From assembly GCA_942492635.1 (NCBI GenBank), contig CALOFP010000001.1, forward strand, positions 799,039 to 863,038: a DNA stretch of 64,000 bases, written 5' to 3'. The notes below the pieces were generated by a model. That model saw only the letters and a list, made by a program, of their open reading frames with translations. It was not told where the DNA came from and searched no databases. The DNA is from an uncultured bacterium. GTDB lineage: Bacteria > UBP6 > UBA1177 > CALOFP01. Below, piece by piece: positions 1,405 through 35,857 of the stretch. The number at the start of each line of letters is the position of its first letter. Positions within the stretch are counted from its first letter, which is position 1. Position numbers and translations under genes: made by a program.

Positions 1405-1725
1405 ATGCTTAATCTTAACAAATCAAACTTCACAAACGAAGTAAAAGATTTTGAGGGTGTTGTAATCGTAGACTTCTGGGCACCATGGTGCGGACCTTGC
1501 CGTATGGTGGGACCTATCTTTGAAGAACTCGCAGGAGAGTATGAAGGCGAAACAAATGTAAAATTTGCAAAGGTCAACACTGATGACGAGCAGGATCTTG
1601 CAAGCCAGTTCGGAATTCGCGGAATTCCCACTGTAAAAATCTTCAAAAACGGATCTGAAGTAGAACAGTTTGTCGGCGCCGCTCCAAAAGATGTCTACAA
1701 GGATCTCGTAGAAAAACATCGCTAG
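1405..1725 (+). CDS. trxA: thioredoxin
   Basis: It has the WCGPC active-site motif, is 106 aa long and has the canonical thioredoxin C-terminal region ([14 protein letters not shown]). An AGGAG RBS is present. Confidence 0.92.
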
Positions 1726-1877: not shown

Positions 1878-2918
1878 TTATCGAATCAGCATGCAATCGC
1901 CGTAACTGTAGAAGCGATACTTTTCCTTCACGGCCTCTTTGTAGGCGCTCATTACGAAGTCGTATCCGGCAAATGCAGAGATCATCATTATGAGAGTGGA
2001 TTTCGGAAGGTGAAAATTGGTTAGAATGGAGTCCACAAAGCGGTAGTTGTAGCCGGGATAGATGAATATGGATGAATCCGCCTCTCCTGCCGCCAGAGTT
2101 CCATCCTCTCTTGCAGCCGTCTCAAGGGCCCTGACCGTAGTGGTCCCCACGGCGACGATTTTCCTTCCCTCCCGCTTATCCCTGTTGAGCCTTTCTGCGA
2201 CATCCTCGGGAATTGAAAAGCGCTCGGAATGCATTTTATGTTCTTCGAGCTTTTCACTTTTCACCGGAAGAAAAGTGCCGAGTCCCACATGAAGCGACAC
2301 GAACTCTACACGGCCTGAGAGTTTCTCTCGCAACTTGTCCATGGTTTCATCGCTGAAATGAAGTCCCGCTGTCGGCGCGGCTACCGATCCCGTATTCTGA
2401 GCGTAAACTGTCTGATAATCGCGTCGATCCTCTTCCCGACATCGCTTCTCGCCTCTCTTTTTGAGGATATAGGGAGGAAGGGGAACATCTCCATGAGTTT
2501 CAAGAAATGAGTAGAGATCATTTCCCTCTGCGGAAAAACAAATGTTATACAGACCTTCGGAACGGGAGACAACTGTCGCTTCCATTCCGCCGTCGATCGA
2601 TACGCTTTCTCCAGATTTCAGAGGCTTCGATGAACGCCCCATGGCCTCCCACGATCCGTCGGGAAACTCTTTTACAAGCAGAAATTCGACTTTTCCACCG
2701 CTGCTTTTTGTTCCGAAAAGGCGTGCAGGGATAACTTTAGATGCGTTAAAAACAACTGTGCAGTTTTCATCTATAGAATCGACAAAGTCCCGGAATTTTG
2801 AGTGAGTGATTTTTTCACTATCCCGGTCGAGAATCATCATTCTCGAACTTCCTCTGGGAAGAAAAGTGTCTGCAATAAGTTCTTCTGGAAGATGGTAGTC
2901 AAAAGCGTTTACGTCCAT
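1878..2918 (-). CDS. queA: S-adenosylmethionine:tRNA ribosyltransferase-isomerase
   Basis: It carries the QueA hallmarks: N-terminal FDYxLPxELIA, VIPARL, HVGLGTF and VVAVGTTTVRALE. The length is 346 aa. Confidence 0.9.
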   Translation of the reverse strand: MDVNAFDYHLPEELIADTFLPRGSSRMMILDRDSEKITHSKFRDFVDSIDENCTVVFNASKVIPARLFGTKSSGGKVEFLLVKEFPDGSWEAMGRSSKPLKSGESVSIDGGMEATVVSRSEGLYNICFSAEGNDLYSFLETHGDVPLPPYILKKRGEKRCREEDRRDYQTVYAQNTGSVAAPTAGLHFSDETMDKLREKLSGRVEFVSLHVGLGTFLPVKSEKLEEHKMHSERFSIPEDVAERLNRDKREGRKIVAVGTTTVRALETAAREDGTLAAGEADSSIFIYPGYNYRFVDSILTNFHLPKSTLIMMISAFAGYDFVMSAYKEAVKEKYRFYSYGDCMLIR

Positions 2919-2919
2919 A

Positions 2920-4125
2920 TCAGTATATCTTCTTTATCTCAATGTTTTTAAAATAGTAACTAATAATATCCCTGTATTTCATTCCTTTTTTTGCCATTTC
3001 GGCCATTCCCCACTGGCAACATCCTACACCGTGACCGGCCCCACGGCCTCTAAAGATAAAGTTTTTTCCGTCTTTGTCAACCGTAAAGCTGTTCGACCAC
3101 ACAACCGAGTAACCGACATAACGGCGAAAATGGTCCACCTTCATTTTTATGCCGTCTACATCTACATGCGTTACCCGATCTCCTTTTCTTCTAACCGAAA
3201 TTGTTCGGATTCGTGATACCTTGATTCCGTTTTTGCGCAATCTTTTACCCATCTGATCAGAGGAAAGAACTCTCTTCCATCGATACAGAGAACTCTTTCT
3301 GCAGTACGGACAGGAAACGGATTTCAGATAGGGAACATCCTTACCCCAGACATTACTGCTTGATGCGGTTTCTCCTCCGCACGTTGAATGAAAGAAAATC
3401 TGCGCCGGCATGTTTCCGTAACTGATTATCTCTCCGCTTGTGGCCGCTACAGCATCGTTGGCGGACATATCCTCTTTGGAAAGACCTCCGTAAACCTGAT
3501 CCAGAACTGTTGGTGAAAGGTCGTAAATGTCACTTCTTCTGTTATAAATCTTCTGGTAAACCGCATATGTCCTTGCAAGCACGGCCTGGACCTTCTTCGC
3601 CTCCAGAGACCAGGATGAAAGAATCTCCTTGTTTATAACACCTTTCACATAGTCATCAAGCGGAAGTTCGTTAACAACCGTTAATTGGCCGTTTATATTG
3701 TAGATATCAAAATTTCCGCGGAAAATTTTCGATCCGATTGAGAGAAATGAGAATTTCGGATGAACTTTCAGATGCCTGGAAGTATATGTTTCGCTGCCGA
3801 TTCGAACACCGGATGAGCCGACCGGTCTGACGTCGAAACGTCCCTGTATCGATCCCACCTTCTCTTGATTCTCATTTCTTATCTCGGCATCTCCCTCAAG
3901 CAGAATTCTTTCAACTGAGATGACAATCCCTATTCGGATGTGAGAATCAAATCCGCCTTTGGGAGTGTCTCCCCCCAAAATTTTATGTGCAACGGCACAA
4001 AAACACTCTGCTGTTGAAAATAAAATTAAGAAACTAATCCAGAATTTTAACAACAAACCAGTCGCGCTTTCCGAAATGATCTTTGGCGACTTTCTCGGCC
4101 GTTCCTTTATCATCAAATTTGCCAT
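2920..4125 (-). CDS. SpoIID/LytB domain protein (amidase enhancer / lytic transglycosylase family)
   Basis: The SpoIID domain signature is present (VLARTYAVY...HSTCGGET...PYL). The start is uncertain because the ORF overlaps the 3' end of the upstream rlpA-like gene. Confidence 0.8.
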   Translation of the reverse strand: MANLMIKERPRKSPKIISESATGLLLKFWISFLILFSTAECFCAVAHKILGGDTPKGGFDSHIRIGIVISVERILLEGDAEIRNENQEKVGSIQGRFDVRPVGSSGVRIGSETYTSRHLKVHPKFSFLSIGSKIFRGNFDIYNINGQLTVVNELPLDDYVKGVINKEILSSWSLEAKKVQAVLARTYAVYQKIYNRRSDIYDLSPTVLDQVYGGLSKEDMSANDAVAATSGEIISYGNMPAQIFFHSTCGGETASSSNVWGKDVPYLKSVSCPYCRKSSLYRWKRVLSSDQMGKRLRKNGIKVSRIRTISVRRKGDRVTHVDVDGIKMKVDHFRRYVGYSVVWSNSFTVDKDGKNFIFRGRGAGHGVGCCQWGMAEMAKKGMKYRDIISYYFKNIEIKKIY

Positions 4126-4678
4126 ATCTAACCTTGAAAAAAGATTCCTGACCTTCCTGTCGATATATGTAGAGACCTTTCAGGACAAGTGAATCCATTA
4201 ATTTTTTCGCATCATCCAGGGTTTTAAAAACACCAAGCTGCACGGTATAGAAAACTTCAGATTCTGAATCTTCATCCAGAAGTTCGTTGTCTCCTCTCAA
4301 TCCGACCACCCTGATTCTTACCGGAATTCTACCTACACTCTTTCGGGCAATCTTTGAGAATGCAGCCTCTGAAAGATCGATTACATTTCTCCCTGGCCTA
4401 TCGGTTACTCTCACCCTGGTCTTCTTTCCATCATTGAGATTGGTTACCTCGAGTATGGTTCCGAAAGGAAAAGAGTAGATTGCGCAGGTATCTTCATTCT
4501 TGTCAAAAAATTCACCGGATGAGGTTTTTCGCCCGTGAAACTGACCACCGTAATAGGTTGCCTGTATGTAGTAGCTGTCGCCTCTGGAAACCGGTCTATG
4601 GATTTTCGTCTGCATACAGGAGGTCACCATGACAGCAAAAAGAGTTGTCAACAGATTAAGCTTTTTCAGTTTCCTCAT
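4034..4678 (-). CDS. rlpA: RlpA-like lipoprotein: DPBB (lytic transglycosylase-like) domain plus C-terminal SPOR domain
   Basis: The RlpA double-psi beta-barrel region (YYIQATYYGGQFHGRKTSSGE...RVTDRPG) is followed by a SPOR-like C-terminus (YTVQLGVF...YRVRYGKF). The start is placed at the internal Met that gives a lipoprotein signal (MRKLKKLNLLTTLFAVMVTSC). Confidence 0.75.
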   Translation of the reverse strand: MRKLKKLNLLTTLFAVMVTSCMQTKIHRPVSRGDSYYIQATYYGGQFHGRKTSSGEFFDKNEDTCAIYSFPFGTILEVTNLNDGKKTRVRVTDRPGRNVIDLSEAAFSKIARKSVGRIPVRIRVVGLRGDNELLDEDSESEVFYTVQLGVFKTLDDAKKLMDSLVLKGLYIYRQEGQESFFKVRYGKFDDKGTAEKVAKDHFGKRDWFVVKILD

Positions 4679-6821
4679 TTTCACCGTAGTATCGATATTG
4701 GTATTGGTAGTAGTACGATCCATATTTGCTGCCGGTCTTCATTTCAACGTTGTTGACGACTGTTCCGAATATTGAAATTGATGGATTCGAAAGCAGTCTA
4801 AGCCCCCTCTTCAAAATATCCCTGGAGATCTGTTTAATTTTTACTACGAGAATTATTCCATCCACAAGCGGTGAAATTGCCGCAGCGTCGGAAACAGCAA
4901 CAATCGGCGGTGAATCGAAAATCACCATGTCGTACTTATCCTTAAGTTTTGCAACCATGTCCTTGAACTTGTTGGATTCAATCATCTCAGCGGGATTTGG
5001 AGGAATCGGGCCGCAAAAAAGAGCGTCAAGATCGCCGTAAACGTTTTTCTGAATAACTTCATCCAGCCCCTTTTCGTCAAGCATGAAGTTGGAAATTCCC
5101 AATGTGTTGGGCTTTCCGAACAGCTTGTGAACTCTCGGCTTTCTCATATCCGTGTCAACCAGGAGAACCTTTCGGCCTGCCATAGACATACTAACTGCAA
5201 GATTTGACGAGACAGTTGTTTTTCCCTCCTGGGAAGCGGAACTCGTTATCAACAGGGACTTAATATTTCCATCGGGATAGGAAAGCCTGACGTTGGTACG
5301 AATGGTTCGAAGGGACTCTACAGCAGGAGAGTGCATGCTTCCTTCAAAGGCAATCTCCCTGATCTTTGCATCGTCAGGCACTGAAAAGCGAGGAAACACT
5401 CCGAGAACAGGCTTGTTTATAATACCTTCGAGTTCGTCAACATCCCTGATTCTCGTATCGAAGAACTCAACGACAATTACAGCAACGATACTCAAGAGTG
5501 TCGCAATTATAAGCGAGATCAGAACAGTTACCCGTACTCTCGGCTTTATGGGGGCTACGGGAGTGAGAGCCCTGTCTATGACACGAATGTTGTTTGATTT
5601 AAGCAGTGCGGTAAGATCAGCCTGCTTTGTCCTCTCAAGAACTATATCGTAAAGTCTTTTATTGGTTTCAACATCCCTTTTCAACTTGTTGTAATCGATC
5701 TCAAGTCTATTCAATGCAATCGCGTTCGACTGGGCCTCCCTGAGCATTTTCTTTAGATTTTTAATCTCCCTCCCGAGAGTTTTCTTCTCCAGCCGATATC
5801 CGCTGACTATCCCCTTCACCTCGGTCAGGATTACCTTTTCAATTTTTCCAAGCTTCTCCCTCAATAATTTGACTTCCGGATGTTTCTCACCATAAAATTG
5901 GAGCTTTTCCGTCAACTTGGATTGGATATCAAGATACTGCATCTTCAACGAGTGAAGCATCGACGTTGATGAACCGGCATTTTTCTTGAATATTTTCTCA
6001 TCTGAAGAAAAAACGGATTGAAAACTTTCCGTATCAATTCCATCGAGCTCATCAATCTTTGCTGAAAGGGACTTCTCGTAAAGCAATTTTTCAGTCAGCT
6101 TCCCGTACACCCCGAAGATTCTTTCTGAAAGCATCCGCTGCTTTTCTTCAAAGGTAGTGGCAAGAACCTCGTTTTCCTGCTTGAAGTTATAGAGAGAAAA
6201 CTCGGATGTTTCAAGCTGTCCCTTGAGGTTGAGACTTTGTTCGGAAAGCCACTTTGCCGCATCTTTGGTAGCCGTAAACTTCTTCTCCATATTGAAATCG
6301 ATATAGGCGTCAACAACAGCATTTGCGAGAAAAGATGCCGTTTCTGCGCTTCCATCGGAAACACTGATCTTAACAATATTGCTGTTCTTTTTGGGAACTA
6401 CAGAGATCTTTCCCTGAATTATGGAAACGAGATCCATCTCCTTCTTTTCCCCGCCTTTGTCCGATCTCTCTTCATTCCGTTTCGGAACAAGCGAGTTCAG
6501 CACGGCACCCGGACCGAGATTTTCGACAACCTTCGAACTGACGGTACGACTCTTGATTATTTCGTACTGGGTGGTGTAGTACTCTCTGTTGATCCAGTAG
6601 TAACCCGCCGACTCGTTTGCAACGTCTTCAACGTTTCTACCGAGAACGTTTGCGGAATGGGGGGCAATTTCAATTGTAGCGGTAGCCTGATAAACCCTCT
6701 TTGCCTTGACGAGATATGCAGCAGCTACCGTATTTACGAGAATGAATACAGCAATAAAGAGATATATGTGCTTTCTCAGAATTCTGTAGAAAAATTGAAA
6801 ATCAAATTCTTTATCAAACAT
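4656..6821 (-). CDS. polysaccharide biosynthesis tyrosine autokinase / chain-length determinant (Wzc/BY-kinase family)
   Basis: There is an N-terminal TM segment, a long coiled-coil periplasmic region, a second TM segment and a cytoplasmic P-loop (SSASQEGKTTVSSNLA). A Tyr-rich C-terminal tail (YGSYYYQYQYRYYG) completes the BY-kinase pattern. Confidence 0.85.
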   Translation of the reverse strand: MFDKEFDFQFFYRILRKHIYLFIAVFILVNTVAAAYLVKAKRVYQATATIEIAPHSANVLGRNVEDVANESAGYYWINREYYTTQYEIIKSRTVSSKVVENLGPGAVLNSLVPKRNEERSDKGGEKKEMDLVSIIQGKISVVPKKNSNIVKISVSDGSAETASFLANAVVDAYIDFNMEKKFTATKDAAKWLSEQSLNLKGQLETSEFSLYNFKQENEVLATTFEEKQRMLSERIFGVYGKLTEKLLYEKSLSAKIDELDGIDTESFQSVFSSDEKIFKKNAGSSTSMLHSLKMQYLDIQSKLTEKLQFYGEKHPEVKLLREKLGKIEKVILTEVKGIVSGYRLEKKTLGREIKNLKKMLREAQSNAIALNRLEIDYNKLKRDVETNKRLYDIVLERTKQADLTALLKSNNIRVIDRALTPVAPIKPRVRVTVLISLIIATLLSIVAVIVVEFFDTRIRDVDELEGIINKPVLGVFPRFSVPDDAKIREIAFEGSMHSPAVESLRTIRTNVRLSYPDGNIKSLLITSSASQEGKTTVSSNLAVSMSMAGRKVLLVDTDMRKPRVHKLFGKPNTLGISNFMLDEKGLDEVIQKNVYGDLDALFCGPIPPNPAEMIESNKFKDMVAKLKDKYDMVIFDSPPIVAVSDAAAISPLVDGIILVVKIKQISRDILKRGLRLLSNPSISIFGTVVNNVEMKTGSKYGSYYYQYQYRYYGENEETEKA

Positions 6822-7462
6822 TAGAAAAACCTTTCCGGTACATAGATTACATCCCCTGCGATTAACGGAAATCGCTTCCTTTTACCCTTGACGATACTGT
6901 CTATATTGATTGTTATACGCTTTTCCCTGGTTCCATTTAATTTCCTTGTCAATATTACATTTTTCTTATCCGCAATCCGTGTAAATCCACCGGCTAGAGA
7001 GACTGCTTCCACAACTGACAGAGTGTCCTTGATTACATATCGACCAGCATTCTTGACTTCACCCAAAACGTAGACCCCCTTACTCCTGAAATCTTTTACA
7101 AGAACAGTGACCTGAGGATTTTTAATAAAGCCATCCAGAAGAGAGTTCTCAATTTTCTTGGCAAGCTGGAAATTGTTCAGACCGAGAACGGAAATATCGC
7201 CTATTAGAGGCAGCGTTACCATTCCCTCGGGACTTACCTGGTACTCTCCGCTGATCTCCTTTTCACCGTAGACATCAACTTTCAGGATATCTCCTGAACC
7301 GATTATAAAACCGGATGAAATCATCCTGTTCAGTTCGCTTGTAATTTTCACATTTCTTTTCTCTTCATCACTCTTTACTGTCTCTGTCTTTTTCCCAAAT
7401 TGCAGTGTACAGGAAAGAAACCCGAAGATAGAAATAGAAAAGATCAAAAACGCTTTTTTCAT
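6821..7462 (-). CDS. short outer-membrane polysaccharide export (OPX, Wza-like) protein
   Basis: It has the Poly_export motif (PEGMVTLPLIGDISVLG) and one SLBB-like region. A lipoprotein-like start (MKKAFLIFSISIFGFLSC) is used. It is too short to carry the C-terminal OM-spanning helix of classical Wza. Confidence 0.75.
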   Translation of the reverse strand: MKKAFLIFSISIFGFLSCTLQFGKKTETVKSDEEKRNVKITSELNRMISSGFIIGSGDILKVDVYGEKEISGEYQVSPEGMVTLPLIGDISVLGLNNFQLAKKIENSLLDGFIKNPQVTVLVKDFRSKGVYVLGEVKNAGRYVIKDTLSVVEAVSLAGGFTRIADKKNVILTRKLNGTREKRITINIDSIVKGKRKRFPLIAGDVIYVPERFF

Positions 7463-7493
7463 AAAAGTTTTCCTTTGATTTTCATAAGAGAAT

Positions 7494-8777
7494 TTAGTAG
7501 TCGACAACAATTGAGAGCATGGAACTATGAGTTGTGTAATCGTAAAAGACCTCACCGATTTTTTGCTGATCTCCATCCAAGAGCACTGTGGAATGATCGG
7601 TATCTCTCATTTCAAATGAATAGTTAAGAGCTAGACCCAACCAGTTGGTTATGTTGTATGCAATGTTTGGTGAGACTTTATAGAGAATATCATCTCTTGT
7701 CTTGCCACTCTGTTCGTCTGTCACATTTTCACCGAAAGCAAGAAATCTGACATTTCCTTTAAGAGAAAGAAGAAGCTTCTTTCCCAAAAGTTTATACCAC
7801 ACACCGGCATAGATCTTATCCTGACGGTAATACTGATAGTCCGAAGACGGAGTGTAGTTTCTCAAATATCCGAGTTTTGCAATCAGCATTTCCGAATGCT
7901 TGTAAACAACTTCTGCGCCTGCGGTTACATCCTGTTTTTCGGTGAAGGAGAAGGTGTTCACATAACCGGTGCTTAATTTGAGCGAAAACTTTGGGGTTAT
8001 CTGACCTATGATACCTCCGAAGATATTGAGAGGAAGGGAGTTCTGACGGTCTCTTTCATCTCCTGAGTTATAATAATCCTGAAAAACAACAGAAGTGTTC
8101 AGAAAAAGGGCTGTTTTCGGGAAAAACTTCCACTTTGCATACAAATTCCCTCGATATGAAAGATAGTTCTGATCACCGTAAATATCCTGCTCATAGTAGT
8201 TTAGAGAGACTCCTGCACTCAACTTAAGAAGAAGAGTTTCAGCAGGAGTAACCATAAAACCGGAAAGCTCAAATGTCTCCATTAAGTTGGCAGTCAGACC
8301 TGTGATGTTCTGACTTTCTGGAGATGAGTTCCTGGTAAATCTGTTTGAGAATTTGAATCGAAAAAAGGACTCCTTATTAAAAAGTCCGTCAACTTTTGAA
8401 TTTATGTGAAGTGTGGAGAGATTTTCTGTCGTATCCTTCTCCTCAAGCCCAGTATAGAGATTGTAGTCCATCATTACGGAAATTCCCAGCGCCTTATCCC
8501 TGTCATCCATCAGAAACTTCAATCCAGGTGAAATATGAAAAATTATATCGGACACGGATTTCTGCTTGATACCGGACCCATCGGTTTCACTTAGAAAATA
8601 GGTCCTATCGGAACTTCTTGCAACATTCGACATGTATTCGGGTGCGAGAGATAGGTAAACATCCAACCTGGAATTATCGGATAACCTGAAACCTTTCTGT
8701 TCTTCACCGTAAACCGCACCGATTGTAACAAAAATAATCAATATAGAAACTAGACACAATACCACACTCTTCATCAT
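7494..8777 (-). CDS. outer-membrane beta-barrel protein, likely partner of the short OPX
   Basis: It has a signal peptide and alternating amphipathic beta-strand-like segments. The C-terminus ends in an aromatic residue (VVDY). It lies directly upstream of the OPX and BY-kinase genes. Confidence 0.55.
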   Translation of the reverse strand: MMKSVVLCLVSILIIFVTIGAVYGEEQKGFRLSDNSRLDVYLSLAPEYMSNVARSSDRTYFLSETDGSGIKQKSVSDIIFHISPGLKFLMDDRDKALGISVMMDYNLYTGLEEKDTTENLSTLHINSKVDGLFNKESFFRFKFSNRFTRNSSPESQNITGLTANLMETFELSGFMVTPAETLLLKLSAGVSLNYYEQDIYGDQNYLSYRGNLYAKWKFFPKTALFLNTSVVFQDYYNSGDERDRQNSLPLNIFGGIIGQITPKFSLKLSTGYVNTFSFTEKQDVTAGAEVVYKHSEMLIAKLGYLRNYTPSSDYQYYRQDKIYAGVWYKLLGKKLLLSLKGNVRFLAFGENVTDEQSGKTRDDILYKVSPNIAYNITNWLGLALNYSFEMRDTDHSTVLLDGDQQKIGEVFYDYTTHSSMLSIVVDY

Positions 8778-10928: not shown

Positions 10929-10979
10929 TTAAAACCTCTGCTGTAAAAAATACAATACCACTTCCCCAAATAAAAAAAT

Positions 10980-11010
10980 ACGGAGCACTTCACAGTGCTC
11001 CGTACGTCAA
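10980..11010 (-). terminator. intrinsic terminator after exbD (hairpin CGGAGCAC-TGTGAA-GTGCTCCG followed by a T-run on the minus strand)
   Basis: A perfect 8-bp stem with a 6-nt loop is followed by TATTTTTTTATTT when read on the minus strand. Confidence 0.7.
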
Positions 11011-11023
11011 CTCAAATAAACAG

Positions 11024-11620
11024 CTACGATGCCTCATCTCCGGCATAGATTACTGCAAACTTAAATTTTGAAAACTCCGCTTGTCCGGCTGTATACATAA
11101 CCTCCGTCAAAAGTCTGTATGGAGTCTCCTCATCCATAACGATCGTGCACAACCCCTTGAACTCGACCTTAGGATTCATACTGGCAAGACGTCTCTTCTT
11201 TTCTGCCGCATCAAGAAGTACCTTGTTAAGCTGAATCAGAAAATAACTGTCTTCGCCACCCCTCTTCTGTGAAGCATCAACCTTACCGTCTTTCAACTCC
11301 AATCCAGGAATAGCCTTATTGTCGACAATTATCGCTGTTTTTGAAACTGTAACAGAGACTGTTGCCTCAGGCTTCAAAAGTGCATTGGAATTCGGTATCT
11401 GAAGATCGCTACTGGGTTCGATTGTCAGAGGATCCGTAGCGTAACTTTTCAAAAGGAAAACAAGAAGGATGGTAAGAATATCCATGAGGGAGTTGATATT
11501 CAAATCACTAACACCCTCTTCCTCTTTCTTATCCATACGTCCCTTCCGCTTTCTCTTGAGCATCTCCTCTTCGTAGTTCGGAGAAAGATGCTCATACGTT
11601 CTTTTGTCTTCTGCCATCAT
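11024..11620 (-). CDS. exbD: biopolymer transport protein ExbD/TolR
   Basis: It has a single N-terminal TM segment (INSLMDILTILLVFLL) and the ExbD-like periplasmic domain. Confidence 0.8.
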   Translation of the reverse strand: MMAEDKRTYEHLSPNYEEEMLKRKRKGRMDKKEEEGVSDLNINSLMDILTILLVFLLKSYATDPLTIEPSSDLQIPNSNALLKPEATVSVTVSKTAIIVDNKAIPGLELKDGKVDASQKRGGEDSYFLIQLNKVLLDAAEKKRRLASMNPKVEFKGLCTIVMDEETPYRLLTEVMYTAGQAEFSKFKFAVIYAGDEAS

Positions 11621-11632
11621 ACGCTCCTTAGT

Positions 11633-12193
11633 TTAAGCCAAGCCGGCACTCAGGACAACCTCCGGGAAGAGCGGCTGCTTCTTATCGCCGTTCTTGGTCT
11701 CCCTGGCAGCATCCATGACCTGAATGATGTACTTGTACTTTGTGGTAGCTTCAGCCTGGATGATAACCTTCGACTCACCTGGATTCGCATTTTTGATATC
11801 CGAAAGAATCTTCTGCAATCCCGAGTAGTCGTAAACCTTTCCAGGAACATTGTTGCCGGTACTACCCTCCTTAACCTCCTCTTCTCCATCAATCTTCGGC
11901 AGAGTGGGGCCCAGAGGATCATCTTTGTTCTCGATAACCTGATCCCGGGCAAAAACTGTGATACCTCTGTCGGTAAGAGCGATAGTAAGTTTCAACGGCT
12001 TTTCCGAATCTTTCGGAGCAGGTGGAATCGAATCGCTCGGCCCTGCAAGCTGGGGAGTTGAAACATTTATCACTGCAATTTTCACTGCCTCCATTGACGT
12101 CAGAAGGAGCGGAATGAGGATAAGAATAAGGTTCATCGCAGGCTTCAAGTTCAAATCTTGCGACGGTTCAAAACCTTTTCTCTTTCTTGCCAT
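11633..12193 (-). CDS. exbD: biopolymer transport protein ExbD/TolR (second copy)
   Basis: It has an N-terminal TM segment (LNLKPAMNLILILIPLLL) and matches the ExbD family. Confidence 0.8.
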   Translation of the reverse strand: MARKRKGFEPSQDLNLKPAMNLILILIPLLLTSMEAVKIAVINVSTPQLAGPSDSIPPAPKDSEKPLKLTIALTDRGITVFARDQVIENKDDPLGPTLPKIDGEEEVKEGSTGNNVPGKVYDYSGLQKILSDIKNANPGESKVIIQAEATTKYKYIIQVMDAARETKNGDKKQPLFPEVVLSAGLA

Positions 12194-12218: not shown

Positions 12219-12866
12219 TTATTCCGCACCCTTCTCTGCTCTACTAACAAGAAGGTTAACAAGCTTGACTGAATAGAGATCTATCTCATTAATAATCTTA
12301 GCACAGAATCCCTTAACAATCATGTGAATTACCATTGCGGGAATAGCAACAATAAGTCCGAAACCTGTTGTATTCATCGCGATAGCAATACCGCTTGCGA
12401 GCATTGCGGACTTCTGCTCGGGAGCAGCGTTGGCAACAGCTTCGAAAGCCTGAATAAGACCGAAAATCGTTCCGAGAAGTCCAACGAGTGTAGCCATATT
12501 TCCAACAACGAATATGGTTTCAACAAGTTTTGTGATTTTCGGAGTAACCTCAAGAATCGATTCTTCGATAGCATTCTGAATCTCAAGCTCTCCTCTGTTC
12601 GCTCTGGAAAGACCAGATTTAAGAACCTGCGCAAGAGCCGCATCTCCTGCAGCCGTACAAAGCTTGATGGCCTTGTCAATGTTGTTGGCCATAACAAGCT
12701 TCTGAATCTGCTTCATAAGGTTTGCACCGTTTGTGTTGAACTTGGCGATCAGGAAGAAGAACTTCCAGAAAGCAACACCAAGAACGTAGAGAAAACAGAT
12801 CGCGATGAAATCCATGAAAATGCCGCCATCTCTGTAAAACTGTCCGGCCTTTGCAAAAAATTCCAT
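12219..12866 (-). CDS. exbB: MotA/TolQ/ExbB proton-channel protein
   Basis: It shows a three-TM topology with the conserved C-terminal TM pair (GLLGTIFGLIQAF...TTGFGLIVAIPAM). Confidence 0.85.
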   Translation of the reverse strand: MEFFAKAGQFYRDGGIFMDFIAICFLYVLGVAFWKFFFLIAKFNTNGANLMKQIQKLVMANNIDKAIKLCTAAGDAALAQVLKSGLSRANRGELEIQNAIEESILEVTPKITKLVETIFVVGNMATLVGLLGTIFGLIQAFEAVANAAPEQKSAMLASGIAIAMNTTGFGLIVAIPAMVIHMIVKGFCAKIINEIDLYSVKLVNLLVSRAEKGAE

Positions 12867-18038: not shown

Positions 18039-20326
18039 TCGATACTCTCCAGGTTCCGGTAAAGGGATTGAATCTCTTTCGCCATTTCACTGCGATACTT
18101 CCTGAGTTTTTTGGAAGCGGCCTCCTTTTTCTCCCAAGCCACATCTATGATCCCGAGATCAGCCTGGAGCACAACATCGGTAAACCGTTTTTTCACAGCT
18201 GCAACGTTGGACACCATGGCAAGGGAAGTAAGTTCATTAACCTCCCTTTTCAACACAAGTATCTGACTCTTATACTCATTAATCCGGATAACTTCCTGTT
18301 CGTAGGAGATCCTGACATCTCTCACAAGCTCCTTAACGATATCGTTCAACTTAAACTGAAAACGGGATATCCGACCATCCAACTCTTCTATTTTTCCAGT
18401 AGTTCTTTCAATATCGAAGATCAACTCAACATTTCTCTCCCCAGATCCACCAAGGATGGAGGAGAGCTGTTCGATGACGCTCTTGTAGCGATTGCGCACC
18501 AGTATCATTCGAGTAACCATCTCTCCGCCGAGAAGCAGCCTGTTCTTCTCGTTTTCGATTTCAGATTTGTACTGCCTCATCGTGTTGAGCATGGCTTCCA
18601 GAGATTTTTTTTCCGTCTCGATCTCAGCTATAAGCGACCTGTTGGATTCGCCCTCCCTTTTCTTTTCCTTAACGTAGTAAGCATTTATAGCCTGAATTTG
18701 AGCAGATGCATTGGAAATTTCAAGAGAAAGCCTATGAAGCTCCCCTTCGATTTTCACTATTCTTTCCGCATACCTGGCTGTCTGCTCCTTAAATTCGCCC
18801 CCCGTCAACGGCATGGTATCAATCTCCTTCTCAAGCTTGCTCTTTTCCCTCTCAAGATTGAGATACCGTTGCTTCTCTTTTTCACTCAAGCCTGACCAAC
18901 CCAGATCTTTTCTCATTTTCAACAGACGATTTCTGTGGTTTGCAAGCCTGTTCTGAAGAGCCACAGAAAGTTCTGTTCCCTCCTTCAGAGGAGGAAAAAC
19001 CGCGGCGGCATTCCTGCTTAAGATAACCGATGAAAGCTTGCTCTCGATCTGGCGAATTGTACCGAGCTCCTTTTCCATCTTTCCCACCTCCTTCTGAAGA
19101 AGCAGGGCGTGATCAAAATTACGATTCTTTTTAAGAAGTGATTTCACGACGGGTGAAAAAAGAGAAAAGGATTTATCATCAACCATTGTTTTGAGGAAAC
19201 TGCCTGACTTTCTTCTATCGGAGAGATTTGATATCTGCTCCATGACTTCACCGTACTTTTTTACCGTACCGTCAAAGGCAACCATGGCCTCACCGTACCG
19301 TTTCATTTTGATCAGAAGATTTCCCTCCAGAAGATCTACTCTCGGGGCAAAGGTGGAGTCGGGTGCAATAAGCTTCAAAAGCCTTAAAGTATCAAGAGCC
19401 TTCCCATCCTCGCCCCTCTTTATGTAGGTCCAGCACAATTCGAAGTAACCCTCCAGAAAATAGTCCGATTTTCTACTGAGACGCAGGTAGTAGTCTGTTG
19501 CCTGAATAAAGTCATTTCTCTCAAAGTAGATTCTGGCCAACGCAAGCCTTGAAAGGTCCCGTATCTTACTGAACTGAAAATAGTCCGGTTTTTCCGGGGT
19601 TGAAATTATCTTTTTCAGGAGATTCTCAGCACCGTCAAAATCTCCCCCCTCAATCCTGATAACACTCATGAAGTAGAGACTCTGAAGATAGTAACGGCTC
19701 TTTTCGCCAAGGGTTTGAAAAATGTCGTAGGCCTCATCCATTTGCCTGTCGAAAAAAAGCGCCTTCCCGAGATAGTAGATCAGCTCTTTGTCATTGGAAA
19801 TATCGTATCCTATGCCTATAAATTCAGCGTAGTAATTCTTCGCTCTGGAATACTCTCCCAGATGGTAGGCCGATGCGATAAGTCTCTTGAGAGAGTCGAC
19901 CTGGAATCGTGTGTTCGGACGTGCGGCCAGGAGCATCTCATAGTATCTCGAAGCCGAAATGTAGTTGCGCCCCTGATAGAGAGACTCGGCAAGCATGAAG
20001 AGTGCCTCTTCCCATACAAAATCCCTCTCTGAACGATTTGCGAATATGGAGTAGTAGATGCCACCGGCAACAGAATAGTCCCTCTTGTCAAAAAAGTATC
20101 GACCCTTCTTCAATCTCTGGGAATAGGACTCTCTGTCTCTCTTCTTCTTGACTACAAGAGGAGATAGAAATCTTTTCTCGGCAGAAATAAATATCGCCTC
20201 CACCTCTTCGACATCCCTTTCGACCGATTTCACGGAAGCGAACTCCCCATTCCCGGATTGAGCACAAACCCCGGATGCGATCAGAATGGAGAAAGAAAGC
20301 AGGAGCCACTTAGTTGTTGGAGACAT
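18035..20326 (-). CDS. TPR plus coiled-coil protein (763 aa)
   Basis: It has a signal peptide, N-terminal TPR repeats and a C-terminal half with extended coiled-coil heptads. There is a 4-nt overlap with the downstream gene. Confidence 0.65.
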   Translation of the reverse strand: MSPTTKWLLLSFSILIASGVCAQSGNGEFASVKSVERDVEEVEAIFISAEKRFLSPLVVKKKRDRESYSQRLKKGRYFFDKRDYSVAGGIYYSIFANRSERDFVWEEALFMLAESLYQGRNYISASRYYEMLLAARPNTRFQVDSLKRLIASAYHLGEYSRAKNYYAEFIGIGYDISNDKELIYYLGKALFFDRQMDEAYDIFQTLGEKSRYYLQSLYFMSVIRIEGGDFDGAENLLKKIISTPEKPDYFQFSKIRDLSRLALARIYFERNDFIQATDYYLRLSRKSDYFLEGYFELCWTYIKRGEDGKALDTLRLLKLIAPDSTFAPRVDLLEGNLLIKMKRYGEAMVAFDGTVKKYGEVMEQISNLSDRRKSGSFLKTMVDDKSFSLFSPVVKSLLKKNRNFDHALLLQKEVGKMEKELGTIRQIESKLSSVILSRNAAAVFPPLKEGTELSVALQNRLANHRNRLLKMRKDLGWSGLSEKEKQRYLNLEREKSKLEKEIDTMPLTGGEFKEQTARYAERIVKIEGELHRLSLEISNASAQIQAINAYYVKEKKREGESNRSLIAEIETEKKSLEAMLNTMRQYKSEIENEKNRLLLGGEMVTRMILVRNRYKSVIEQLSSILGGSGERNVELIFDIERTTGKIEELDGRISRFQFKLNDIVKELVRDVRISYEQEVIRINEYKSQILVLKREVNELTSLAMVSNVAAVKKRFTDVVLQADLGIIDVAWEKKEAASKKLRKYRSEMAKEIQSLYRNLESIE

Positions 20327-21059
20327 CTTCCTCCCCGCGGTTCTTGTTTACACCAGCTTCGCCCTGCCCTTCGTAGGCTTTTTCCTTGAGATCAAATTCA
20401 ACATGAAGTCGATTTTCAAGTTTCTCCGCGCCTCCCTTGTCCTTGGAAACAGAAGAGAGCTCGACGATCCTGCCCTCCTCTACATTGAAGGAGTAGCCCG
20501 TCTTAACTTTGAAGGTATATCCTTCCATATAGGAGAATATTCCGAAACCTTTTCCTCGATATATGAGATAGGCTGATACATGGTGTGGCCCTGGAACAAT
20601 CGAGCCGTCGAATACCACAATATCCTTTTTGCTGAGATCACGTGGACTGTCGATTTTCTTGAATATCGGAGCTTCATCAAGGTAGTATATGGCTGATACA
20701 AGTTCGAATGCTCCACCGACCCTGTTCTTGTGCACAACGGTAGCCCTTGCTCCCGTAATCGCACCCTGAAGAACCGTCTCCTGAAGAATCGAAAGTCTCT
20801 GTTTGGCCCTAAATATCTTATCTTTGAGAGAATTTATCTTCTCCTCAAGAGTTCGCAACTTAATATCGTACTCCCCACTCTGTTCGGAAGATTTTTCCTC
20901 TTTTTCAACCGATTGAGTGCTCTTTTCAACCTGCGTCTCTTTCTTTTTCTCCTGCTCAGGTCTTCCCTCGGAAGAACTTTCTTGTGCGTGGATTGTAAAA
21001 ACAATAGAGAAGATTAAAAAGAGTGAAAGGAAATTTCGCAAAAACATAATGCGCTCCAT
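20310..21059 (-). CDS. secreted coiled-coil hypothetical protein
   Basis: It has a signal peptide and a Glu/Lys-rich coiled-coil region. It is the first gene of the TPR operon. Confidence 0.5.
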   Translation of the reverse strand: MERIMFLRNFLSLFLIFSIVFTIHAQESSSEGRPEQEKKKETQVEKSTQSVEKEEKSSEQSGEYDIKLRTLEEKINSLKDKIFRAKQRLSILQETVLQGAITGARATVVHKNRVGGAFELVSAIYYLDEAPIFKKIDSPRDLSKKDIVVFDGSIVPGPHHVSAYLIYRGKGFGIFSYMEGYTFKVKTGYSFNVEEGRIVELSSVSKDKGGAEKLENRLHVEFDLKEKAYEGQGEAGVNKNRGEEDVSNN

Positions 21060-21109: not shown

Positions 21110-21925
21110 TCAAATCCGCTCTATAGTGAGCATCTCCTGTTTTAATATTAGTTCCCCGACACTTTTGAATGTGTCAACGGCATCGGTAACGTAGAATGTC
21201 TCTTTTCCCGGCTCCGCGGAAGGCCCTTTCCACAACTCTCTATCGATAAGGAGCCTCTTCAATTCACGGGCTGTGAAGTATCCGGAATCCATGATGTTCA
21301 CATTTTCCCCCATGAAGTATCCTATGGGACGTCTAAGCAACGGGTAGTGGGTACATCCCAGTATGAGAGTATCTATCCCGGCCTCTTTCATCGGCTTCAG
21401 ATAGTGTTCGATCACCATCATAGTCATTGGGGTATCCAGCCAGCCCTCTTCCACAAGCGGAACAAAAAGAGGGCACGCCCTGGCGAAAACATCGACATTC
21501 AGACGATTTCTGATTCGCTCCTGATAGACGTTGCTTTTTATGGTGGCCCTGGTACCGATTACTCCAACTCTCTTCACATGATCACATGAAATGAGACCAT
21601 TCACCACAGGCTCTATGACCCCCACTATAGGAATATGGGGAAATTGATCCTGAAGTGACTTCAATGCAACGGAAGAAGCTGTGTTACAGGCGACCACTAC
21701 GGCCTTCACACCTTTCTCCTCAAGAAAATGAACGTTATCCTCGGAATAGCGCTTTATGACACCTTCCGATTTCCCACCATAAGGGACCCTTGCCGTATCT
21801 CCCAGGTAAACAATATCTTCGTTCGGCAGCACCTTGCGAAGCTCCCTGAAAACCGTAAGGCCTCCCAATCCGGAGTCAAAGACACCTATCGGGGAATCAA
21901 TGCCTTTCATCATCACCTTCACCAT
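21110..21925 (-). CDS. murI: glutamate racemase
   Basis: It has the MurI catalytic motifs (VFDSGLGGLTV and LGCTHYPLL). Confidence 0.9.
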   Translation of the reverse strand: MVKVMMKGIDSPIGVFDSGLGGLTVFRELRKVLPNEDIVYLGDTARVPYGGKSEGVIKRYSEDNVHFLEEKGVKAVVVACNTASSVALKSLQDQFPHIPIVGVIEPVVNGLISCDHVKRVGVIGTRATIKSNVYQERIRNRLNVDVFARACPLFVPLVEEGWLDTPMTMMVIEHYLKPMKEAGIDTLILGCTHYPLLRRPIGYFMGENVNIMDSGYFTARELKRLLIDRELWKGPSAEPGKETFYVTDAVDTFKSVGELILKQEMLTIERI

Positions 21926-23717
21926 CCATCTTTAAAATCTCTGTCTTTCCCACGTAGTATTCGGAATCCTCAGCTCGCAATTTTGCAACTTTTTTAGTCA
22001 GCGACACAGCCTTATCCAGTTCGACGCCGAGTCTCTCTATGTACTCGCTTAGATCCGAATCCGCAACAACTTTCTCTTTCAGTATATCCAGATACATCTG
22101 CATAACAGAGAAATTCTGATTAAAGTTGTGAGATATGGTACCCGCCAGCTTTTGGAAAAGCTGTGATCCACCCTCTCCCACCGCCCTGTTCTCAGAACCG
22201 GACTCAATACAATTTTCGCATTCAGGTACAAATTTCAGAAAGTAGAGCTCTGCTTCCCTTGAATATGAAAACAGCGCCCGATACCCTTTCGGCTTTTCCC
22301 CATATGCATCAACGACTCCGACATCAATCGGAATTCTTACTGTTCCAGAATGCCCCTTGTCCCGTTTCAGAAACGAAAAAAGTTGCTTCATGGCATCATC
22401 TTTTTCAGTGAAAGAGAGGATAGAGAGTTCATCTTCTGAGGAGGAGACAACCTTAAGAAGTGCTCTTGCCTCTCGGTTCATGAACCTTATCGCACCCATG
22501 ATATCGAAGGCCAGAAAGGGCGGTACCGTATCAAGAGCCACCCTTAGCCTTTTCAAATCTCTTTCATACCGTCCCGCAGAGCTCTTTTTCTTTTCCTCAA
22601 CCACAAAACCCCATTTTTCTTCCGCAATTTGGAACCTTTTCCACACCAAATCCTTTCTGGAGAGCGTATAAAAATGGTAGTAGGGACGCTCCTGATGCAC
22701 CTTACCCAACTCTATTTCGAATATACTTTGGAGATTTTTATGAAGAATTGCCTTACGCTCTATCTTCAAGATATCCTCCAAGGCCCCGTTGAGAAAAAGT
22801 ATCTTTCCGGATCGATCAGATATCACAATTCCTCCGGGAAGCTGTTCCAAAACAGCCCAGCAACCCTCTTCTGGATGCAGATTTGTGAGGAAGGGGCATC
22901 CGCCCACATTGGCACTACCCTTTTCAAAGAGAAAAAACTTTGAAAACAATACTGAAAAAATTGTCTGGGCCAACTTGCCTCCCTCCGAGAGAGGAGGCTC
23001 TCCGTCAGATCTCACAAGCAGAGCCGCCACAACGTCTCCATACCTGTTCTGCAGAGGAATGGCGGAACGAAAGGAGCTTCCGCTCTCCTCGGAAAGCGTC
23101 GCCCCCCTCGATTTCAGCTCATCAGAGGTGAAACAGAGAGATTTCCTGAAGTTTATCGCCTCTCTCAATTCGGGATAGGAATCTATATGGAGCACATAGT
23201 TCCTGAAGTAGGAGTTGTCAGAAGAAGCTAATATCACGCCGAATTTACCGACAGGAAAAAGAACGACAAGAGTGGTTTTGGATGCATCCAAGGCTCTGTT
23301 CATCAAGACAAGGAATTCAAGAAAAGAGTCATAACTGCACCTTGAAAAAATTGGCAGGGTAATCAGATTCCTGATATCCGCTTCTGCCGAAAACAGCAGG
23401 TTCCCCACCGCCTTCTCCGAAAGGAGCGAGATCTGATAATCGATGTCCACACCAGCCCAGATCAGGCCGTATCCCGATTCGGCAACAATCTCAGGATCAA
23501 TATCTCGATCGGCAAAAATGTAACATGTATTCTCACTTGGAAGGGCAGGAACAAATTCCGTTGCCTCTCTGACTGCATTGCCAAGAAAAAAAATCGTGGC
23601 TCCACTCTCAGGAACAATGCGTTGCGCATCGAAAAGCTTGTTATTTCCGGACTCTACCCAAACAGAAAGCTCCCGCAGAAGTATACCGTCATTGCCTATA
23701 TAATAGTAATTCATCAA
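21897..23717 (-). CDS. cytoplasmic sensory/signalling protein, possibly PAS/GAF-like with a HisKA-like H-box but no ATPase domain
   Basis: It is a 606-aa ORF. Near the C-terminus there is an H-box-like stretch (LAGTISHNFNQNFSVMQMYLD), but no HATPase N/G1/G2 boxes follow it. It lies next to the REC-HD-GYP gene. Confidence 0.45.
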   Translation of the reverse strand: MMNYYYIGNDGILLRELSVWVESGNNKLFDAQRIVPESGATIFFLGNAVREATEFVPALPSENTCYIFADRDIDPEIVAESGYGLIWAGVDIDYQISLLSEKAVGNLLFSAEADIRNLITLPIFSRCSYDSFLEFLVLMNRALDASKTTLVVLFPVGKFGVILASSDNSYFRNYVLHIDSYPELREAINFRKSLCFTSDELKSRGATLSEESGSSFRSAIPLQNRYGDVVAALLVRSDGEPPLSEGGKLAQTIFSVLFSKFFLFEKGSANVGGCPFLTNLHPEEGCWAVLEQLPGGIVISDRSGKILFLNGALEDILKIERKAILHKNLQSIFEIELGKVHQERPYYHFYTLSRKDLVWKRFQIAEEKWGFVVEEKKKSSAGRYERDLKRLRVALDTVPPFLAFDIMGAIRFMNREARALLKVVSSSEDELSILSFTEKDDAMKQLFSFLKRDKGHSGTVRIPIDVGVVDAYGEKPKGYRALFSYSREAELYFLKFVPECENCIESGSENRAVGEGGSQLFQKLAGTISHNFNQNFSVMQMYLDILKEKVVADSDLSEYIERLGVELDKAVSLTKKVAKLRAEDSEYYVGKTEILKMDGEGDDERH

Positions 23718-23971
23718 ATACCGTAAAAAAAATTACAATACTACGATAGTAAACCTACCATATAAGTTGTGATATTTGAAAATTTTTTTGCTGCTTTTAA
23801 AGCCCGATTCGCTTGAAATCATGATTCAATCTAAAAAAGGGCTGTACTTACAGGATCATGCATAAATCCCCCACCCTAACCCGATGAGAGAAAATCATCT
23901 ACAACAAATCTAAATCACAGATCTTTTCCTGCATCCCTGTTCAGAATCGAACTCATCACGCACAAGAATAT

Positions 23972-31040: not shown

Positions 31041-31203
31041 CTCCGGCAACATACCGTTTTAATTCAAAATAAAAGTTCAAGCTAAATTATACGAACGCCA
31101 CAACAAAACAAATCCGAACACATTCCTTAGGCCGAACGTGGGAGAAAAATATTTTGCTATACTTTTTCTGCTATCGCAATTTAAACATTCCAAGGGAGGT
31201 ATC

Positions 31204-35857
<4,654 letters not shown>

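Follow-up and report, generated by a model that had tools for sequence, protein, structure and literature searches.

The closest described counterpart of the locus reported here is the exporter of the biosurfactant polysaccharide (BPS) of Myxococcus xanthus, which consists of WzcB (MXAN_1025), the OPX (outer-membrane polysaccharide export) protein WzaB (MXAN_1915) and the porin WzpB (MXAN_1916) (PMC12819527, PMC9603273, PMC7310880). WzaB, whose soluble form is structure 9N9A, binds the porin WzpB through Phe203-Phe204, without which BPS is not secreted, and N-terminal lipidation is needed for octamerisation of the protein (PMC12819527). A second described system, the Agl-Glt core complex, is made up of gltC, gltD, gltE and gltG together with aglR, aglQ and aglS; it occurs beyond the myxobacteria and has had no function assigned to it since 2011, and its paralogues are Nfs (G3), G4 and G5 (PMC3169522, PMC3858216). 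In the Glt model, the TonB_C-type protein GltG and the tetratricopeptide repeat (TPR) connector GltC engage outer-membrane barrels (PMC5349195, PMC11761067). Agl-Nfs moves a polymer, Exo, that the cell secretes through a Wza-type system (PMC3858216). Here we describe a stretch of 64,000 nucleotides ("the window"; contig CALOFP010000001.1, positions 799,039 to 863,038, of assembly GCA_942492635.1) from an uncultured bacterium of the GTDB lineage UBP6, UBA1177, CALOFP01, in which an exporter of the first kind stands in one array with genes of the second kind.

We read this locus as a class-3 OPX/Wzp/Wzc exporter that forms the distal part of an Agl/Glt-type array, with functional coupling of the two inferred from synteny, and estimate the probability of this reading at about 80%. 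The exporter itself is not newly discovered, since composite OPX/beta-barrel translocons, to which it belongs, have been known from descriptions of 2022 (PMC9601211, PMC9603273) and a dissection in 2026 (PMC12819527). What appears to be new is its linkage to an Agl/Glt core complex, to a secreted protein that we call p241 and to peptidoglycan hydrolases, found here in bacteria that are not Myxococcota and have as their nearest relatives metagenome-assembled genomes (MAGs) labelled Spirochaetales.

The OPX open reading frame (ORF) opens at 7576; the start that fits is the ATG at 7462, which is preceded 8 nt upstream by AAAGGA and gives the protein the signal peptide MKKAFLIFSISIFGFLSC. In Pfam, Poly_export (PF02563) matched at 2.8e-21 and a single SLBB domain (SLBB_2) at 1.3e-11, the latter over residues 167-246 of the 251-residue ORF. 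No Pfam domain was found past the SLBB match, the protein stops five residues later, and neither a Wza_C helix nor a GfcC module is present. The initial annotation, made from the sequence alone, had described a short OPX protein of about 214 residues with PES and one SLBB region; the short form and the domain content stand, whereas the length is corrected by one residue. Its statement that the protein has no room for the classical Wza pore helix was likewise confirmed: because the ORF ends at the start of Wzc, no helix spanning the outer membrane is possible.

When the OPX protein was compared with all PDB sequences, 9N9A was the best match (E 3.4e-35) and Escherichia coli Wza reached about 1e-19. 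The window protein and 9N9A align up to their C-terminal residues, ...VPERFF in the window and ...VPESFF in WzaB, and the C-terminal Phe-Phe porin-docking motif of WzaB is kept. Among complete OPX homologues, 69 of 70 have a ...PE[SR]xx tail with two terminal hydrophobic or aromatic residues (FF 22, IW 16, FI 12, FL 9, others). The signal peptide contains a lipobox-like FLSC with a non-canonical Phe at -3, as read by eye; its Cys aligns with the lipobox Cys of relatives, in which the x-V/T/S-S-C context is kept. Among class-3 OPX proteins, roughly one in two is a lipoprotein. The best NCBIfam model was pepcterm_export (7e-34), whose score of 116.9 bits stays below the cut-off of 180. EpsY (6e-27) reached 94.2 bits against a cut-off of 320, so far below it that the protein is not an EpsY equivalog. 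By sequence we assign it to class 3 (D1D2), WzaB type, as a relative of the EpsY and pepcterm_export subfamilies and an equivalog of neither.

Directly 5' of the OPX gene, separated from it by 31 nt, lies the gene of the barrel-type outer-membrane protein of 427 residues, ending in VVDY, that the initial annotation had pointed out. Its strand count, which had been left to structure prediction, came to 18 long strands plus short loop hairpins in an AlphaFold2 model built on a 60-sequence alignment (pLDDT, predicted local distance difference test, 93.4; predicted template modelling score, pTM, 0.85). A run from the single sequence gave a pLDDT of 34 and was unusable, and the alignment-based model was taken instead. 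A word-indexed protein search retrieved only the barrel itself, and an exhaustive HMMER scan recovered 474 cluster representatives at E <= 1e-3, mostly of 400-450 residues. Of the top 60 of these homologues, 29 matched PF10082 (BBP2_2), 16 EpsL and nine TIGR03016, the PEP-CTERM-associated outer-membrane protein family. AlgE was the best match of the model among solved folds, and PgaA, BcsC and PelB were matched as well; for EpsX, too, AlgE has been reported as the nearest fold (PMC9601211). The identity to AlgE is only 8%, the Foldseek comparison of the model with the PDB is unspecific, in that MtrB, Cir and OmpF rank beside AlgE, and a profile of the barrel family found no match among PDB sequences. 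On the model, we regard the protein as an 18-stranded barrel of the polysaccharide-porin type. An assignment as GltH was rejected, as GltH is a small barrel of 209 residues.

The third protein of the exporter, whose ATG shares 1 nt with the OPX stop, matched Wzz, GNVR and AAA_31, the P-loop kinase domain, in Pfam. It has two transmembrane segments, a periplasmic region of about 390 residues and Walker A, A' and B motifs, and a C-terminal tyrosine cluster ...YGSYYYQYQYRYYG... is visible in the sequence. Its NCBIfam match to eps_fam (TIGR01007; 1.1e-53) lies above the cut-off, with 181.8 bits against 108, and its best PDB matches are full-length Wzc chains of 727 residues (9i2q, 1.3e-49; 7nhr, 1.8e-48). 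The features of the array are collected in Table 1.

Table 1. Features of the Glt-like array, the exporter and the genes that follow them, in order of transcription (positions in the window; aa, amino acids; PCP-2a, polysaccharide copolymerase of type 2a; BY-kinase, bacterial tyrosine kinase)
Feature	Position	Strand	Remarks
p249, first gene of the array	20310..21059	minus	secreted, charged, coiled-coil look (by eye), no family
GltC-like TPR protein, 763 aa	18035..20326	minus	gliding_GltC 1.8e-15, 56.7 bits, below cut-off of 450
GltD-like TPR protein, 1113 aa	14697..18038	minus	assigned by size, TPR content and synteny only
GltE-like TPR lipoprotein, 489 aa	13231..14700	minus	gliding_GltE 1.8e-22, 79.9 bits, below cut-off of 225
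GltF-like small protein, 81 aa	12906..13151	minus	
ExbB/TolQ/AglR-like protein	12219..12866	minus	Pfam MotA_ExbB 1.7e-23, NCBIfam tolQ 6.9e-16
ExbD/TolR/AglQ-S-like proteins, two genes	11633..12193, 11024..11620	minus	Pfam ExbD 2.6e-10, 1.1e-09
Terminator-like hairpin	10978..11005	minus	12-bp stem with 6 GC pairs, then TTTTTTATTT; in the 95-nt ExbD-GltG gap
GltG-like TonB/TolA-type protein, 460 aa	9546..10928	minus	gliding_GltG 3.7e-50, 171.2 bits, below cut-off of 650
p241, secreted protein, 241 aa	8800..9525	minus	signal peptide, region of ~110 aa with two Cys, acidic low-complexity tail
Outer-membrane barrel protein (Wzp/EpsX-type porin)	7494..8777	minus	427 aa, SPI signal peptide, end ...IVVDY
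Class-3 (D1D2) OPX protein, putative lipoprotein	6821..7462	minus	213 aa, PES and one SLBB, end ...VPERFF
Wzc-type PCP-2a with fused BY-kinase	4656..6821	minus	721 aa
RlpA-family lytic transglycosylase, DPBB and C-terminal SPOR	4034..4723	minus	Pfam, NCBIfam
SpoIID/LytB-domain peptidoglycan hydrolase, 401 aa	2920..4125	minus	NCBIfam SpoIID_LytB 1.4e-63, above cut-off
QueA, tRNA-modification enzyme	1878..2918	minus	NCBIfam QueA 5e-130

The exporter genes are the tail of a co-directional array of about 19 kb, in which the upstream intergenic gaps range from -17 to 95 nt. The GltG-like protein has one transmembrane segment, a Lys/Pro-rich linker and a C-terminal AgmX/PglI (TonB_C-like) domain that matched NCBIfam myxo_SS_tail above cut-off (1.2e-31); an FHA domain was not detected in it by Pfam. 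Since all Glt equivalog cut-offs were missed, we regard the Glt-like proteins, judged by their sequences, as paralogue-level relatives of the Glt proteins and not as their orthologues. Counterparts of the barrels GltA, GltB and GltH, of GltK, of GltI and GltJ and of the adhesin CglB were found neither in the array nor elsewhere in the window, and the array is therefore not a gliding machine. Homologues of p249 lie 5' of the GltC-like gene in two surveyed loci (L025 and L068). The ~110-residue region of p241 looks alpha-helical when read by eye, and neither p241 nor two Myxococcota homologues (L026:9230-9895, L057:9116-9790) had a match in Pfam or NCBIfam; members of the family have about 200-240 residues. 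Although p241 occupies the same gene position as GltH, it is unlikely to be its counterpart, as it looks helical and has an acidic tail, whereas GltH is a barrel. Directly 5' of the array, past a MurI-like racemase, two proteins are encoded (21897-25459, minus strand), one with a PAS domain and the other a response regulator that combines GAF with an HD-GYP-type (HD_5) domain; they are possible regulators of the cluster linked to cyclic di-GMP (c-di-GMP).

On the coding strand, no strong terminator-like element was found other than the hairpin between the second ExbD-like gene and the GltG-like gene. Close relatives and two Myxococcota loci also have a GC-rich hairpin in this place, though of other sequence; most of these hairpins are followed by a T-run, which L003 and L006 lack. 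The array may therefore consist of two transcription units or be an attenuated operon. In the former case the second unit would contain the genes of GltG, p241, the barrel, OPX, Wzc, RlpA, SpoIID and QueA; in the latter the hairpin may act as an attenuator and so set how strongly the motor is expressed relative to transducer and exporter.

Gene order was compared in two surveys. The survey from the barrel side combined the pattern WKFLPKT[AMS], taken from a 10-sequence alignment (the window's own sequence is WKFFPKTA), with tblastn over one genome per GTDB species and gave 80 loci, whose six-frame ORFs were searched with the window proteins. For the survey from the GltG side, metagenome contigs were scanned with the C-terminal domain of GltG, and 80 further loci were analyzed with family hidden Markov models (HMMs). 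By their search patterns and the cut at the best 80, both surveys are biased to the subfamily nearest to the window. A short OPX gene lies directly 3' of the barrel gene in 71 of the 77 genomic loci with room for it, and ends 565-812 nt past the barrel gene in all 70 loci with complete homologues. Upstream of the barrel, GltG was found in 67 of 72 genomic loci, and p241 immediately 5' of it in 72 of 80 when an iterated HMM was used. From the GltG side, p241 directly followed GltG in 62/62 metagenomic loci with room, and the barrel followed, contiguous with p241, in 43/43. The p241-barrel-OPX order is kept in MAGs of Myxococcota and in MAGs labelled Bdellovibrionota and Spirochaetales. The full gene order of the window is common to the 19 closest loci, all of them MAGs from rumen and other metagenomes, five of which are labelled "uncultured Spirochaetales". 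Myxococcota loci have a gene for a 147-residue cyclic-nucleotide-binding protein between GltG and p241 (L026:4747-5193; L057:8656-9099), and some of them also one for a 1291-residue FG-GAP/beta-propeller protein (L026:5306-9181); the window lineage is without both.

The barrel and OPX genes, whose co-occurrence across genomes the initial annotation had proposed as a check, are thus linked in several lineages. Together with the end-to-end alignment to WzaB, this synteny means that the composite OPX/beta-barrel translocon, which it had suggested to be EpsY/EpsX-like, holds as a reading. Since the two genes co-occur and the OPX protein has no outer-membrane helix, neither of the outcomes that had been named as contrary to that suggestion (a membrane-spanning helix in the OPX protein, or a barrel from a porin family not linked to OPX genes) was observed.

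Downstream of the kinase, the array continues into two genes for peptidoglycan hydrolases. The RlpA ORF, which overlaps the end of the kinase gene by 23-68 nt depending on the choice of start, matched DPBB_1 (9.9e-14) and SPOR (6.7e-11) in Pfam and rlpA in NCBIfam above cut-off (6.2e-24); from its sequence, the product is probably a lipoprotein starting at Met16 (...VTSC). The SpoIID/LytB ORF overlaps RlpA by about 80-92 nt, and no terminator-like site was found between these ORFs. Co-transcription of both with the exporter, as the initial annotation had suggested, is thus plausible. RlpA follows the kinase in 20 of 20 relatives with a kinase gene, and SpoIID comes next in nine of them. QueA, which starts 1 nt past the SpoIID stop, closes the co-directional run and has a weak terminator-like site on its 3' side (1712..1694). 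It stands at the same position in seven relatives (L003-L008, L015) and is probably a transcriptional passenger only.

The initial annotation had found the kinase without a Wzx/Wzy or ABC pair in the window. Pfam scans of nearly all main-strand ORFs of at least 150 residues over the 64 kb, with an ORF of 2178 residues outside the scan, agreed in finding no glycosyltransferase, Wzx, Wzy, ABC transporter or phosphoglycosyltransferase (PGT). A search of the flanks, which had been recommended, likewise found no glycosyltransferase, Wzx or Wzy in the downstream flanks of relatives. As several ORFs of the window have no Pfam match at all, a divergent Wzy might still be among them. The synthesis genes presumably lie elsewhere in the genome; in M. 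xanthus, the BPS export genes are likewise apart from the synthesis genes (PMC7310880). Polysaccharide genes follow GltG-p241-barrel in every locus examined. In two loci without OPX (L141, 12475-17684, and L147, 13058-15143), a hexapeptide acetyltransferase, a DegT aminotransferase and a GFO/IDH/MocA oxidoreductase come directly after the barrel, a trio which we take to be a WbpD/E/B-like set. Such a set suggests a sugar of the 2,3-diacetamido-uronic-acid type, reminiscent of the BPS rich in N-acetylmannosaminuronic acid (ManNAcA). A GT4 glycosyltransferase is also encoded 3' of the barrel in L141, and a DegT enzyme and a SIS-domain enzyme 3' of the OPX gene in L026.

From the experiments on the M. 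xanthus homologues, OPX, barrel and Wzc thus appear to form a trans-envelope conduit for a polymer made by a Wzx/Wzy pathway. Wzc, with its PCP-2a part and BY-kinase, would reside in the inner membrane, and the 18-stranded AlgE-like barrel would supply the pore that the D1D2 OPX protein lacks. By analogy with WzcB, WzaB and WzpB, the lipid-anchored OPX protein would octamerise under the outer membrane, use its C-terminal Phe-Phe to dock on the barrel at the periplasmic rim, and contact the Wzc cage, from which it would receive the polymer; cycling of tyrosine phosphorylation would drive export, again as in M. xanthus. RlpA-SPOR and SpoIID/LytB may locally open or remodel the peptidoglycan for assembly across the envelope. 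The proton-driven Glt-like apparatus may, to judge from synteny, act on the exporter or its product: the barrel might be contacted by GltG and the TPR proteins, or these might handle the emerging polymer as Agl-Nfs does the Exo polymer of the spore coat.

Several observations weigh against reading the locus as a class-3 exporter coupled to the Glt-like apparatus. The barrel of the window has no Pfam or NCBIfam match above threshold, and the OPX protein has Lys-Asn (FIKNPQV) where WzaB has Arg106-Arg107 (YVRRPQV), its contact to WzcB. Among homologues the latter site reads RN, KN, RR, KR or KS, the first residue usually basic and the second variable; the twin-arginine pair is WzaB-specific and does not define the class. 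With no synthesis gene in the window or the flanks, the pathway type and the polymer have to be inferred. The evidence for coupling between the Glt-like proteins and the exporter is gene order, the hairpin may split the array into two transcripts, and a polar insertion in MXAN_1922, the G4 homologue of gltD, leaves gliding and twitching at wild-type level (PMC3169522). As mutants of the BPS pathway have a defect in swarm spreading (PMC7310880), the result of the insertion argues against an obligate dependence in M. xanthus. Finally, when loci are collected from the GltG side, OPX follows the barrel in only 19 of the 36 with room for it. Set against the 62/62 and 43/43 given above, this makes GltG, p241 and the barrel the invariant unit.

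This last count is also an argument for assigning the barrel primarily to the Glt-like (G4-type) machine as its outer-membrane component, where it would replace GltA, GltB and GltH as the partner of GltC and GltG, with OPX and Wzc as secondary, lineage-specific additions. The barrel would then serve force transmission or other cargo, instead of polysaccharide export or besides it, which is compatible with the reading we prefer. By its position, the conserved hairpin sets GltG apart from the motor genes and leaves it together with p241 and the barrel; no other outer-membrane barrel is encoded in the array; and GltC docks on outer-membrane barrels in the Glt model (PMC11761067). We nevertheless consider such a primary role unlikely, if worth keeping in mind, as BPS secretion in M. 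xanthus depends on WzpB, which binds WzaB in vitro (PMC12819527), the modelled fold is that of AlgE, and the OPX gene lies so close to the barrel gene with the Wzc start overlapping its stop. The loci without OPX, moreover, have sugar-nucleotide and glycosyltransferase genes after the barrel, so that the link to polysaccharide persists there. The structural match to AlgE, PgaA, BcsC and PelB and the presence of three TPR proteins of 489-1113 residues in the same array would also suit an exporter of the synthase-dependent style, in which the TPR proteins would be periplasmic scaffolds for an AlgE-like barrel, similar to AlgK or to the TPR portions of PgaA, BcsC and PelB, and OPX and Wzc would belong to another pathway. 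It is very improbable, given that the window encodes no synthase, c-di-GMP receptor or polymer-modifying enzyme, that GltC and GltE are the best matches of the TPR proteins, which stand beside ExbB/ExbD and a TonB-like protein, and that an OPX protein with the porin-docking Phe-Phe comes immediately after the barrel.

That the barrel is an ordinary uptake porin of the OprD/ChiP type, placed by chance of position beside a capsule-export operon, is strongly disfavoured, with hardly any probability left to it, by the p241-barrel-OPX order kept across the three groups of MAGs and by the matches of barrel homologues to EpsL and the PEP-CTERM-associated family. A mis-started or frameshifted classical Wza that has lost its helix through an annotation or sequencing error, for which only the short length of the OPX protein speaks, is refuted: the OPX stop overlaps the Wzc ATG, in Logan ERR9669565, an independent assembly, the encoded barrel protein is identical and the start of the OPX protein matches, 69 of the 70 complete homologues share the ending at the same distance from the barrel gene, and WzaB, with an identical ending, is functional (PMC12819527).

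If the class-3 exporter at the end of an Agl/Glt-type array is accepted, a wider proposal can be made, which we put forward tentatively and with less than even confidence: the Agl/Glt core complex and its G4-type paralogues might be an accessory of class-3 OPX polysaccharide secretion driven by the proton motive force. GltG, p241 and GltC/D/E would engage the Wzp barrel and gate or energise it, or would spread the polymer on the cell surface. The window would then hold a complete machine of ancestral style, with motor, transducer, porin, OPX, Wzc and peptidoglycan hydrolases, which would support the descent of the gliding and spore-coat machines from a polysaccharide-assembly system. Agrebi et al. 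reportedly proposed a capsule-assembly ancestry for Glt and Nfs in 2015 (Nat Rev Microbiol 13:318), which may anticipate part of this proposal. By itself, the trio of OPX, barrel and Wzc adds a further case to the commonest and recently clarified OPX class, and shows that the Phe-Phe docking tail of WzaB is kept far outside the myxobacteria. The barrel family, which includes the BPS porin of M. xanthus, stands almost always directly after GltG and p241 in an Agl/Glt-type cluster, which is the best-conserved surrounding of this family. This leads to a hypothesis, testable genetically in M. xanthus, on what the Glt core complex and M. xanthus G4 do, namely that they handle a secreted polysaccharide, and it makes the p241 family a new candidate component.

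The lower-GC half of the window (33-40% GC, compared with about 45% around the cluster) carries remnants of mobile elements: an RNA match to group II intron D1-D4 (Rfam RF02005, 50.6 bits; 46116-46346, minus), an istA/istB pair of the insertion sequence IS21 type (46847-49155, plus) and a Y1 transposase of the IS200 type (60072-60539, minus). Two very large ORFs lie in the low-GC region, the one of 2178 residues mentioned above (53459-59995, minus) and one of 1112 residues (60613-63951, minus), whose product has no NCBIfam match. On the plus strand, 28152-35857 encodes a hybrid two-component-like regulator (Reg_prop repeats, Y_Y_Y, AraC HTH), then a family-less protein of 1011 residues and a collagen-triple-helix-repeat protein of 557 residues; the AT skew of this stretch is unusually high (0.17-0.25). 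No tRNA or rRNA gene was found in the window.

Compared with the BPS exporter of M. xanthus, the window has the same set of parts, a D1D2 OPX protein of about 200 residues with Phe-Phe that is a putative lipoprotein, an adjacent barrel modelled with 18 strands, and a PCP-2a Wzc with fused kinase. The OPX protein is about 41% identical to WzaB, a value estimated through the OPX of the closest relative (L002) and not from the window against 9N9A. In the window Wzc directly follows OPX, whereas in M. xanthus it is encoded 1 Mb away; the ExbB/ExbD motor genes lie inside the cluster, whereas the paralogous M2 motor of M. xanthus is encoded elsewhere; and RlpA-SPOR and SpoIID/LytB are appended, unlike at the BPS export locus. 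The likeness extends to the neighbourhood. The G4 cluster of M. xanthus consists of MXAN_1919 (447 residues), 1920 (91), 1921 (490, TPR), 1922 (1111, TPR) and 1923 (809) (PMC3169522), and the window proteins of 460, 81, 489, 1113 and 763 residues are nearly identical to these in size and match them in order. G4 is three locus tags away from WzpB and WzaB (MXAN_1916/1915), and the Myxococcaceae MAG of locus L057 has GltC/D/E/F/G-like genes, three small genes, the barrel and an OPX protein 68% identical to WzaB. Locus tags and synteny of this type together point to an adjacency of G4 and wzpB/wzaB in M. xanthus itself, where MXAN_1917 is the predicted counterpart of p241. A literature search found no mention of MXAN_1917 or MXAN_1918 and did not find MXAN_1922 or other G4 tags together with MXAN_1915 or 1916, and the OPX papers PMC9601211 and PMC9603273 do not mention Glt-like neighbours.

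EpsY/EpsX (WzaX/WzpX) and ExoA/ExoB (WzaS/WzpS) likewise pair a D1D2 OPX protein with an adjacent 18-stranded AlgE/PgaA-like barrel in Wzx/Wzy-type systems (PMC9601211, PMC9603273); these pairs sit within biosynthesis clusters, and no report of Glt-like neighbours was found for them. The group 1 capsule Wza-Wzc pair of E. coli (2J58, 7NHR) also has PES and SLBB and a Wzc of the same length and architecture. Its Wza has D3 and the amphipathic D4 pore helix, whereas the OPX protein of the window stops behind D2 and depends on a separate barrel. The best structural match of that barrel, the alginate porin AlgE of synthase-dependent secretion, works with AlgK and a synthase and not with an OPX protein and a PCP. 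Finally, the window resembles the Agl-Glt systems in that a single array holds one TolQ/ExbB-like and two TolR/ExbD-like proteins, a GltG of the TonB_C type, three TPR proteins and a small protein like GltF; unlike in those systems, the core complex is here joined physically to Wzp, Wza and Wzc.

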